DNA of 42,013 nucleotides, from assembly GCA_034669905.1 (NCBI GenBank), contig JAXMOL010000063.1, forward strand, positions 1 through 42,013, given 5' to 3'. Below, in pieces: positions 34,839 to 36,858 of this stretch. This DNA is from Candidatus Hydrogenedentota bacterium (GTDB lineage: Bacteria; Hydrogenedentota; Hydrogenedentia; Hydrogenedentales; JAEUWI01). The position numbers and the translations under genes were made by a program. The notes under the pieces are model-generated. The model saw only the letters and a list, made by a program, of their open reading frames with translations, had not been told where the DNA came from and did no database searches. Position 1 is the stretch's first letter. The number at the start of each line of letters is the position of its first letter.

Positions 34839-34966
34839 CCACCTGCCGGAGCACGTCTCCACCACCGCACAGGTGCAACGCTGCCCCCGGCTCTGTTAGG
34901 CTGTAGCCCGATGGCGTGCGCACCCTACGCGCCGCCCCTTGAACTCAACAGAGACGTGCGGAGACC

Positions 34967-36559
34967 ATGACGACGGATACCCTTTCCACAGACTCGGGCG
35001 CGGTCAATGAATCGGCCCTGCTGGATCAGGTGCGCACGGGCGATCCCGCCTCGTGTGGTCCCCTGGTGGACCACCTCGGTGCACCGATCTTTCATTATCT
35101 CTATTGGCTCACGGGCACGGTAGAAGAAGCCACGACGCTCTTCAAAGACACCCTGCTCCACCTCTACCTCAACCCCAGCCGGGCGCGTAAGGAAGCCTCT
35201 GCCCGGCAGTGGGTCTATGGCCATGTCACCCAGCTCTGGCTCCAGGACCGACAGCGCCAACGGCAGCGGCGCTCCTCCCTCGACAACATCCTCCGCGGGG
35301 GACTGAAGACGAAAGAACAGGCCCCGTGGGTGGATTGGATGACCCAGTGCCCCGAGGCCACGGGCCCGGAAGCCCTGGCCCTGGAACCGACCGTCGATAG
35401 TATCGGCCAACTGACCGATCATGAGCGGGCCGTGCTCCTCCTGACCACCCTGGCACGCCTTCCCCTTAAGTACGTGGCGGCCACGCTTCGGGTATCCCCG
35501 CGCAAAGCCCGTAAGCGGCTGGTTTCCGCCTTTGCCAAACTGAGTGCCCAGCCCGATACCCCCACCGATGCGGCCAGCCGCAAGGTAGGACGGCTCGCCC
35601 AACGTCGGGCACTGGGCATCGAATCCAATGGCCAGGCGAAGGCCCTCGACAAACTCATCGAGAGCGATGGCGAGCACGAGTCCCAGGTGAGCCATTGTCA
35701 CGGCGTGCTTCAGGACCTCCAGGCGCTGCCCCGTGCTGCGGCACCCTCCACGCTGACCCAAGAGACCATCACCCATCTGGAAGAGGGCCACGCGGCGCTG
35801 GAAACCCGCATTGCGACCTGGGGTTTCCGCTTCATGCAGGTGACCGTGCCCCTCTTCATCCTCGCCATTCTGGCTATCATTCTCTTACCGGCCATCTCCC
35901 GCTCCCGTGAAATGGCGCGCCGGGCCGATGCGACGGAGAACCTCCGTGAACTGGGCCAGGCCCTGAAGGCCTATAGCAACGCCTCCTATGGCAACCGCTA
36001 CCCCCCCATCACGGCGGAAGCCGGGCTGTGGGTGCCCGATCTCACGGCCCTCTACCCCACCTATATTGATAACCCGGCCCTGCTCGTGAACCCCAGTCTC
36101 AATGACCCGGCCCTCGTAAGCGCCATCACAGAAGCATTGACCCAGTCCCCCCCCGACTGGAAGACGGCCCACGAACTTTTTGCCCGGTCCTATGTCTACA
36201 CGGGCTACACGTTGTTGGACGCGGAGTCCCTGGCCTCCTTCATGGCCTTGCGAAACGCCGAAGGAGAGCGTGATCTGGAAGGGGATCTGGAAACGGACGA
36301 CCGGCGCTTCTATCGCCTGCGAAAGGGCGTGGAACAATTCTTCGCGGGCAACCTGCGGGCCATCCCGGGAGAGAAAACCACGGGACCCATCCGCATCCCC
36401 GTCATGTTTGAGGTCTTTTCCGCCACCGGCTTTGGCACCAATCCCGAAGGGGCCAACGTCCTCTATCTGGATGGGACCGTGGCCTATATTCCCTTCGGCA
36501 CGTCCTTCCCTGTGAACGACAGCGTCATGGAACTCCTCGAAGAAGCCCAGCGCCGCTGA
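34967..36559 (+). CDS. Fusion protein: degenerate ECF sigma factor, anti-sigma-like domain, and prepilin-type TM helix with DUF1559/H-X9-DG-like domain
   Basis: Sigma2-like and sigma4-like segments; GFRFMQV...ILAIILLPAISRSRE.ARR...NLRELG.AL; GANVLYLDG. Confidence 0.8.
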   Translation: MTTDTLSTDSGAVNESALLDQVRTGDPASCGPLVDHLGAPIFHYLYWLTGTVEEATTLFKDTLLHLYLNPSRARKEASARQWVYGHVTQLWLQDRQRQRQRRSSLDNILRGGLKTKEQAPWVDWMTQCPEATGPEALALEPTVDSIGQLTDHERAVLLLTTLARLPLKYVAATLRVSPRKARKRLVSAFAKLSAQPDTPTDAASRKVGRLAQRRALGIESNGQAKALDKLIESDGEHESQVSHCHGVLQDLQALPRAAAPSTLTQETITHLEEGHAALETRIATWGFRFMQVTVPLFILAILAIILLPAISRSREMARRADATENLRELGQALKAYSNASYGNRYPPITAEAGLWVPDLTALYPTYIDNPALLVNPSLNDPALVSAITEALTQSPPDWKTAHELFARSYVYTGYTLLDAESLASFMALRNAEGERDLEGDLETDDRRFYRLRKGVEQFFAGNLRAIPGEKTTGPIRIPVMFEVFSATGFGTNPEGANVLYLDGTVAYIPFGTSFPVNDSVMELLEEAQRR

Positions 36560-36564
36560 GCGGC

Positions 36565-36858
36565 GGGGACTGCACCGACGACAGGGGCCCTGCAACAGAA
36601 ACGCACGTGAGGGGCCATACGGCTAACGAACGAACTCCCGGGTGCCACCCTCAAGCGGGGCGGCTACGCCGCGACGCTTGTGGGTGATACGATTTCTCGG
36701 CAGAGAGGCCACAGGGTAGAATTCAAGCCAAGGGACCTACATCACGCTTTTGAGCGTGGGGTCTCTAATTCCAACACACCCACAAACTTCCCCCGCTGCG
36801 CTCCTCCGTTTGAGGGTGGCACCCCAAGCGCTCTCGAAACAAGGTGACGTTGTCCCTC
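36565..36858. repeat. Family A left end (36565) followed by a family C copy (36640-36824, inverted relative to 16129)
   Basis: GGGGACTGCACCGACG; GGGTGCCACCC...GGGTGGCACCC. Confidence 0.8.

Follow-up and report, generated by a model that had tools for sequence, protein, structure and literature searches.

The window, by which we mean the whole stretch of 42,013 nt that was analysed, carries a gene for a 530 aa protein (P0001) that unites, in this order, an ECF-fold sigma part, a class I anti-sigma domain, one transmembrane (TM) helix and a DUF1559/H-X9-DG pilin-like ectodomain. This is a real, genus-wide and undescribed variant of the sigma/anti-sigma hybrids. The most solid new point is a sigma half that appears to have been re-purposed. 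The most exciting point, an internal cleavage by prepilin peptidase, is a minority reading. The features of the gene are listed below with their positions in the window; in G/F the slash marks the candidate cleavage site.

34894..34902, forward strand: extended -10-like element (TGnTAnnnT), 65 nt before the ATG, a probable housekeeping promoter
34967..36559, forward strand: fused ORF of 530 aa (P0001), supported by the lack of internal stops, homologs, genomes and bridging contigs
35000..35263, forward strand: sigma2-like domain (aa 12-99), with T57 and K60 in place of the D/E and Q of other ECFs (profiles, model, residue counts)
35270..35305, forward strand: conserved family-specific linker motif (aa 102-113; deep-pair identity, pN)
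35387..35542, forward strand: sigma4-like domain (aa 141-192), its recognition helix diverged (profiles, residue counts)
35570..35782, forward strand: anti-sigma-like domain of class I (aa 202-272) that lacks the zinc ligands (family profile)
35783..35851, forward strand: near-invariant juxtamembrane segment (aa 273-295) with W285-G286/F287 as candidate prepilin-peptidase site (identity, pN, residue counts)
35825..35890, forward strand: single TM helix, pilin alpha1-like, ending at P308 (hydropathy, TIGR01710)
35891..36556, forward strand: DUF1559/H-X9-DG pilin-like extracytoplasmic domain (aa 309-530; PF07596, TIGR04294, fold)

The fused gene is genuine and genus-wide

A previous reading made from the sequence only had described one ORF with three parts at this position, and this layout holds over the full 530 aa without an internal stop. 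Of the profiles it had proposed for a HMMER check, those for sigma2/sigma4, DUF1559 and H-X9-DG gave matches and N_methyl and TIGR02532 did not; in the Pfam/NCBIfam profile scan all domain matches of P0001 stayed under the curated cut-offs, yet they were mutually consistent. A protein search returned 31 matches, 30 of them full length (query counted), and a profile search gave the identical 31. The 29 further full-length homologs show 42-87% identity to P0001, and P0031, at 337 aa, was probably called too short, because its cluster mate has 512 aa. The named relatives belong to Candidatus Hydrogenedentota.

The split relatives described below are overlapping neighbour genes, so that a single indel could fuse them, which would fit an artefact (misassembly, lost stop codon) or a decaying gene. 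The probability of this explanation is negligible. All 9/9 genomes in the genus to which the window belongs carry the fusion clade, 7 with the gene whole and 2 with the gene interrupted where a contig ends; contigs that come from two further studies (X5, 35243-36232; X6, 35460-36039) cross both the sigma/anti-sigma and the G/F junction free of gaps, and pN is lower than pS in every gene segment (3 pairs per subclade). The bridging-contig check covered 4 of the 20 listed runs and excluded a run that may itself be the source. The fusion is confirmed as genuine: the full-length homologs, the genus genomes and the independent contigs rule out an assembly error and argue against the lost stop codon that had been considered, and the conservation of the fusion that had been asked about is evident. 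No other genus among 135 genomes of the phylum contained the fusion clade (10 candidates per genome scored).

Origin from a sigma/anti-sigma gene pair

Elsewhere in the phylum the same parts are encoded by two overlapping genes, an ECF sigma gene and then a gene for an anti-sigma-TM-H-X9-DG protein, at 20 loci (19 of the 21 loci L090-L110, plus L006). Separate genes in relatives had been named beforehand as a finding that would count against the fusion; they do exist in other genomes of the phylum, but the fusion is not unique and extends through the genus. The window's genome (G000) also has a split pair (C5:124826-126411), with the sigma gene at C5:125788-126411. It is followed by a third gene (C5:123926-124711, reverse strand) that encodes a TM helix and H-X9-DG and no anti-sigma domain, and similar genes follow the split pair in L094 and L104. 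An intact split paralog of the sigma was found in 7/9 genus genomes and was not found in two genomes with the fusion (91% and 94% complete).

For the sigma parts, a tree made by a quick method (54 rows) placed the fusions as sister to the split partners, with support 92 and a long stem of 1.97. The ectodomain tree, also a quick one, placed the fusions among the split anti-sigmas and outside a canonical branch with support 99, which also contains one split protein. Its 63 rows were 33 of 66 split relatives and the genome's own, 11/30 fused proteins, 16/45 canonical prepilins and 2 other fusions; the 66 were hand-picked from 150 matches by length and match start and are not strictly split, since P0115 is the back half of a G091-type fusion. 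The trees and the distribution together show, as judged from sequence comparison, that the gene arose in the genus ancestor by duplication and then fusion of a sigma/anti-sigma pair. On the same grounds P0001 is a descendant of an anti-sigma family mostly without G/F, not a sigma newly joined to a canonical prepilin. A recent capture of a canonical prepilin was considered and is unsupported, with the ectodomain outside the 99-supported branch and positions +6 to +11 no nearer to the canonical motif than in the relatives (41/66 score as high).

An independent in-frame sigma/anti-sigma/H-X9-DG fusion was found in G091, a genome of another family (L133, G091:C22, 515-2059, reverse strand). It has one open frame, a shortened and worn sigma part, and no G/F. 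P0069 and P0089 are unconfirmed single-contig fusions and also have no G/F.

A sigma fold without the ancestral contact residues

Residues 12-197 of P0001 are sigma2/sigma4-like (NCBIfam PRK12513, E 1.2e-10), with scores of 14.3 bits for Pfam r2 (PF04542; cut-off 24), 16.4 for r4_2 (PF08281; cut-off 25.7) and 23.6 for TIGR02937 (curated cut-off 42.9). The best fold match of the AF2 model of P0001 (30 alignment rows, mean pLDDT 76) was RsiW-bound SigW (Z 12.7, rmsd 3.0, 156 aligned residues), and NepR-bound RpoE, CnrH and PhyR matched as well. Anti-sigma-bound sigmas and PhyR fit the model over both domains at rmsd 3-4, whereas RNAP-bound sigmas fit across one domain only, or at an rmsd of about 27. 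The modelled protein thus has the ECF sigma2 and sigma4 fold with a short linker, in line with the sequence-only reading of its N-terminus. That reading was right on the sigma2/sigma4 likeness, but the divergence is much greater than it had stated.

The sigma2 profile was detected in 30/30 fusions; Pfam r4_2 matched 8/30 (E<=0.1), compared to 49-61 bits in 8/8 split sigmas scanned. Of the -35 helix in region 4.2, the residues G, T, V, K, S, R, M and N are each found in 21/21 split partner sigmas and in 1, 0, 1, 0, 0, 4, 0 and 0 of the 30 fusions, and the Asn of region 2.4 in 21/21 and 0/30, respectively. The two subclades of fusions have lost different features. The Gln of region 2.2 is present in 0/6 members of the subclade of P0001 and in 21/24 of the other; the Arg of region 4.2 is kept by P0001 and present in 0/24 of the other subclade, and every fusion lacks at least one of the two. 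At the position of T57, 28/28 further ECF-like ORFs encoded in the genome carry an acidic residue, and 25/28 have the Gln. We take the acidic residue and the Gln of region 2.2 to be contacts to core RNAP, and the region 2.4 and 4.2 residues lost in the fusions to be contacts to promoter DNA. Deep-pair identity points in the same direction (region 2.2: 0.24 in fusions versus 0.61 in split sigmas; 4.2 helix: 0.26 versus 0.87), with the opposite trend for the linker aa 102-113 (0.76 versus 0.29), where pN is 0.03-0.05.

All sigma segments are under purifying selection, and pN of region 2.2 in the subclade of P0001 (0.18) is below the gene mean of 0.26. This argues for a sigma half that was re-purposed rather than one that is decaying, though it could also be active with a new specificity. 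Residue counts and profiles show that the sigma half of the fusions keeps the fold without the ancestral promoter- and core-contact residues; it looks like a mimic that seems no longer to read promoters.

A phospho-Thr in region 2.2 is an idea of the ECF43 type. We rejected it for this family, as only some members of one subclade have Thr at position 56 or 57. Among 788 candidates of 108-347 aa, no stand-alone diverged sigma was found at E<=1e-8; the search was word-limited, and ordinary ECFs were also not returned. The genome encodes further ECFs with long C-terminal extensions (538-1328 aa; G000 C62:4059-8045, C82:334-3465, C64:34040-36727, C37:78228-82064, C32:72957-75908, C5:97219-98988 and C33:42455-44071), and several other long ECFs also have odd 4.2 helices.

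The anti-sigma domain

Residues 202-272 alone gave no Pfam match. The profile of an 83-row family alignment (A2) matched RsiW (E 2.7e-5), ChrR (0.011) and RskA (0.015), and through this family profile only the segment is homologous to these class I anti-sigmas. zf-HC2 was detected in 27/83 alignment rows, none of them fused, and the HxxxCxxC zinc ligands are absent from P0001 and present in 22/66 split relatives. The earlier description of a zf-HC2-like helical segment without these ligands was therefore correct. According to the model, the sigma half would be held closed by its own anti-sigma domain, and this closed pose may be only an echo of solved complexes.

Promoter and neighbourhood

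TGAAC[CT]-N15/16-CGTA stands at the very start of 27/27 split sigma genes (L006, L090-L110, L120-L126 and G000 C5:126417, reverse strand) and at 0/9 fused loci; the motif was derived from the same 27 loci, some of them near-duplicates, and the count is not an independent test. For the split pair of G000 it reads TGAACC-N16-CGTA. It is probably the autoregulatory promoter of the split ECF group, which is gone from the fusions, and we take it to resemble the SigW consensus. Autoregulatory promoters are common among ECF sigmas, though not universal. The genome contains 17 copies of the strict motif, compared to 19.8 in shuffles, so that no regulon can be called for the parent sigma.

The 9/9 fused loci carry an extended -10 element at one fixed position, and 5.5% of shuffled windows contain such an element; TGnTAnnnT is the extended -10 consensus. 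The fused gene is probably transcribed from this housekeeping promoter, as the motifs suggest. A sigma-70 consensus scan gave no site, and no new two-part motif was common to more than 5/9 fused loci.

The gene of P0001 is preceded by a cimA/LeuA-like gene, and a DUF6807 gene faces it. No TonB-dependent receptor gene was found among the scanned neighbours (cimA/LeuA-like, DUF6807, GFO oxidoreductase, amidohydrolase). Three loci of one subclade (L003, L004 and L005) have an MshEN-PilB ATPase gene two genes away from the fusion, with dnaN next in L004 and L005; this neighbourhood is probably not an operon. Downstream of the gene, at 36640-36824 in the window, is an inverted-repeat element about 185 nt long. 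Blastn gave 70 matches to it across the genome, the full-length ones at 74-78% identity, and the element is REP- or MITE-like.

The pilin-like half and the G/F site

Hydropathy of P0001 peaks in windows starting at aa 289-293, and TIGR01710 (GspG) matches aa 286-337 (E 0.002). In the ectodomain, PF07596 (DUF1559) matches aa 313-349 (E 0.003) and H-X9-DG lies at aa 493-508; TIGR04294 is found in 29/30 members (E<=0.1). Profile matches to geopilin, PilE1 and GspG (E 4e-4 to 0.045) and fold matches below the trust level of the tool (PilV, Z 6.3; EpsG, 5.8; PilA4, 5.8) may hint at a pilin-like fold. An AA pair marking an Ala-rich TM is present in 38/66 split anti-sigmas and 0/30 fusions; Ala-rich TMs of anti-sigmas are linked to RIP and Clp degradation. 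The genome also encodes ORFs with several tandem H-X9-DG pilin-like domains (G000 C24:46682-49675, forward strand; C36:32412-34652, reverse strand), and canonical DUF1559/H-X9-DG prepilins number 45. It has several PilB/GspE-type ATPases and a single PilD (C69:15583-16521).

The stretch G/FRFMQVTVP...LLP of P0001 (G286 codon at 35822-35824) aligns without gaps to GFTLIELLVVIA...LLP of the genome's own prepilins, and G/F is in exact prepilin register with P308, pilin position +22. Thus Gly at -1, about 21 hydrophobic residues and Pro at 22 are all in place, the hydrophobic tract being interrupted by Arg at +2. As had been supposed, the site is conserved among the fused homologs (G-1 in 29/30, F+1 in 30/30, P+22 in 30/30), and Glu at +5 is replaced, by Gln in 28/30 and by Leu in 2/30. 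The claimed match to the prepilin motif stands for register and gap-free alignment, but the motif is degenerate: Pfam N_methyl gave no match in 30/30 members at E<=0.1, nor did TIGR02532 for aa 286-530 at E<=1. When positions -1 to +5 are scored for similarity to the prepilin consensus of the genome, 27/30 fusions reach 14 and all 66 relatives stay at or below 11 even with shifts of up to 4 allowed, and 0/66 split relatives have G/F in register. Relics of G-1 and E+5 occur in 2 and 12 of the 66 split anti-sigmas, and in 5 and 5 of 18 in a second comparison; one split anti-sigma has a closely similar W-x-G-x-R-F-x-E stretch.

Residues 286-295 are the most conserved segment of the protein (deep-pair identity 0.93, versus 0.43 overall and 0.13 in the relatives). 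For aa 273-295, pN is 0.00-0.03 at a pS of 0.48-0.61, and these values show strong constraint at the protein level. The invariant W-2, R+2, F+3, M+4, T+7 and P+9 are non-canonical and stricter than G-1. Compared to 68 prepilin-like ORFs of the genome, which were picked by a -1 to +15 pattern so that only upstream positions are a fair comparison, W at -2 is found in 30/30 fusions versus 0/68, and the four residues preceding G have a net charge of 0 in 30/30 versus at least +1 in 66/68. The leader before G286 is folded and 286 aa long, and the AF2 model has one helix (aa 263-339) running through the site. Prepilin class III leaders have 6-26 aa and Glu5 is dispensable for processing, according to the accessible text of PMC4471445. 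As far as the available text of bioRxiv 10.1101/459388 goes, a degenerate PilA of S. sanguinis is still cleaved, and a change to Ser-1 blocks processing of its PilE1. One fusion homolog, from a single contig, has Ser-1. PilD is present in 9/9 genus genomes. Taken together, cleavage by PilD at G286/F287 appears rather unlikely.

Possible modes of action

Our best reading, which we put forward tentatively, is a constitutive, membrane-tethered and self-locked sigma mimic that is not cut by PilD. A duplicate of a SigW-like ECF/anti-sigma pair, with a pilin-derived TM helix and ectodomain on the anti-sigma, fused into one gene in the genus ancestor, and the fused gene lost its sigma-dependent promoter, with a housekeeping promoter probably taking over and presumably giving constitutive expression. 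The sigma half would be locked in cis by its own anti-sigma domain. P0001 would stay in the membrane, uncut by prepilin peptidase, and act by protein contact like PhyR. Its pilin-like outer half may sense partners or the state of the envelope, and the near-invariant helix aa 273-295, the conserved linker and the sigma2.1 patch could relay the signal to a cytoplasmic partner. The most plausible relay would be a change in which anti-sigma domain the mimic holds, the partner being hypothetical. The lost 2.4/4.2 residues, the subclade-specific loss of 2.2 Gln or 4.2 Arg, the weak r4_2 matches, the promoter absent from 9/9 fusions, the fit of the model to anti-sigma-bound sigmas, the intact paralog in 7/9 genomes and the independent G091 fusion, likewise with a worn sigma and without G/F, all favour this reading. 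Purifying selection on the sigma segments and the odd 4.2 helices of other long ECFs speak against it, and the two genomes in which no intact paralog was found weaken a dedicated decoy role. G/F..Q, which is in register and resembles the prepilin consensus more closely than the same stretch of all 66 relatives, counts against it too; for a mimic it would be a retained relic.

P0001 could instead be a sigma that is active with a changed specificity and is released, as in IutY, by site-1 and site-2 (RseP-type) proteolysis in the TM, with G/F as an unused relic. IutY and ECF48/52/53 provide precedents (PMC5411451, PMC8999054, in the parts available), the genome has an ORF with site-2-protease motifs (a motif match only), the whole sigma part is under purifying selection with sigma2 detected throughout, and the invariant T293 and P295 might destabilise the helix. 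The 2.2 Gln or 4.2 Arg missing from every member, the absence of the ancestral promoter and of a new shared two-part motif, and the loss of the Ala-rich TM make this unlikely. Alternatively, a cut at G286/F287 would free a soluble 286 aa sigma-mimic/anti-sigma regulator and leave a Gln5 pilin-like subunit, PilD activity or pilin load being the signal. Register with P+22, the -1 to +5 similarity, the conservation of aa 286-295, PilD in all nine genomes, the tolerance for a missing Glu5 and for degenerate PilA in the partly available sources above and, weakly, the PilB-type ATPase gene two genes away in 3 kin loci of one subclade are in agreement with it. The length of the leader, its uncharged end with W-2, the non-canonical invariant residues, the Ser-1 homolog (blocking in PilE1, in the same partial source), the modelled helix through the site, the G-1/E+5 relics in split anti-sigmas and three other fusions without G/F make it distinctly unlikely. 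The mechanism of the sequence-only reading, in which PilD cleavage frees an active ECF sigma and ties transcription to pilin processing, shares these points and gains from the intact sigma fold; its architecture, the conserved fusion and G/F, and the presence of PilD all hold. It is very unlikely, as it needs cleavage and sigma activity together, each of them doubtful, and the sigma contact residues and the promoter are lost. The site from which a sigma/anti-sigma piece was to be released is in register, but it differs from class III signal peptides in leader, W-2 and charge. The link to transcription is weak as well: a cut at G286 leaves the anti-sigma domain attached, in the model in a closed state, and would give no active sigma by cleavage alone, so that a second step would be needed. 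That PilD serves as a signalling protease, whose internal G/F cut would free a regulator of sigma fold, either a mimic or active, and would couple the regulation of envelope genes to the processing of pilins, is altogether an improbable but not a far-fetched idea.

Relation to known systems and significance

Like P0001, IutY and ECF48/52/53 are single chains in which an ECF domain in the cytoplasm is joined through one TM helix to an outer domain, and ECF48/52/53 also bear a fused anti-sigma domain, theirs of the zinc-finger type, as described in the accessible parts of their sources. P0001 differs from them in its pilin-derived TM and outer domain, the loss of zinc ligands and the lack of an adjacent TonB receptor gene. 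In P. putida IutY (ECF243), Prc and RseP set free an active sigma (PMC5411451, PMC8999054, available parts), in contrast to P0001, whose sigma lacks the ancestral DNA- and core-contact residues. B. subtilis SigW-RsiW (PDB 5wuq), the best match of P0001 in both fold and anti-sigma profile, consists of two genes with an active sigma, a zinc site and no pilin domain. PhyR is an ECF fold serving as sigma mimic (PMC4598750, available part); the P0001 model matches it at Z 8-10.6, and PF22233 matches 3/30 members. Unlike PhyR, P0001 has no receiver domain match, is membrane-bound, carries its own anti-sigma domain and has a separate origin. DUF1559/H-X9-DG prepilins (PF07596, TIGR04294) share the pilin-like helix and ectodomain, but canonical ones have short basic leaders and a G/F..E motif, and the ectodomain of P0001 groups with anti-sigmas instead.

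The sequence-only reading knew of no ECF class with this architecture, and we likewise found no description of it in the literature, mostly non-subscription. The main text of PMC7826278 contains neither 'pilin' nor 'hydrogenedent', and its supplementary group descriptions may list related groups. The ESM Atlas gave only leads under 0.9, which are sigma and zf-HC2 fusions.

The known sigma/anti-sigma hybrids are active sigmas freed by site-2 proteolysis, and the family of P0001 points to a re-purposed sigma half, which apparently came about again in the independent G091 fusion. The parent ECF group now has a promoter consensus and is tied to the abundant, uncharacterised DUF1559 proteins. The conserved internal G/F offers a cheap test of prepilin peptidase as a signalling protease. 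If our reading is true, PhyR would be joined by a second route to sigma mimicry, that of a membrane-bound, self-locked mimic.
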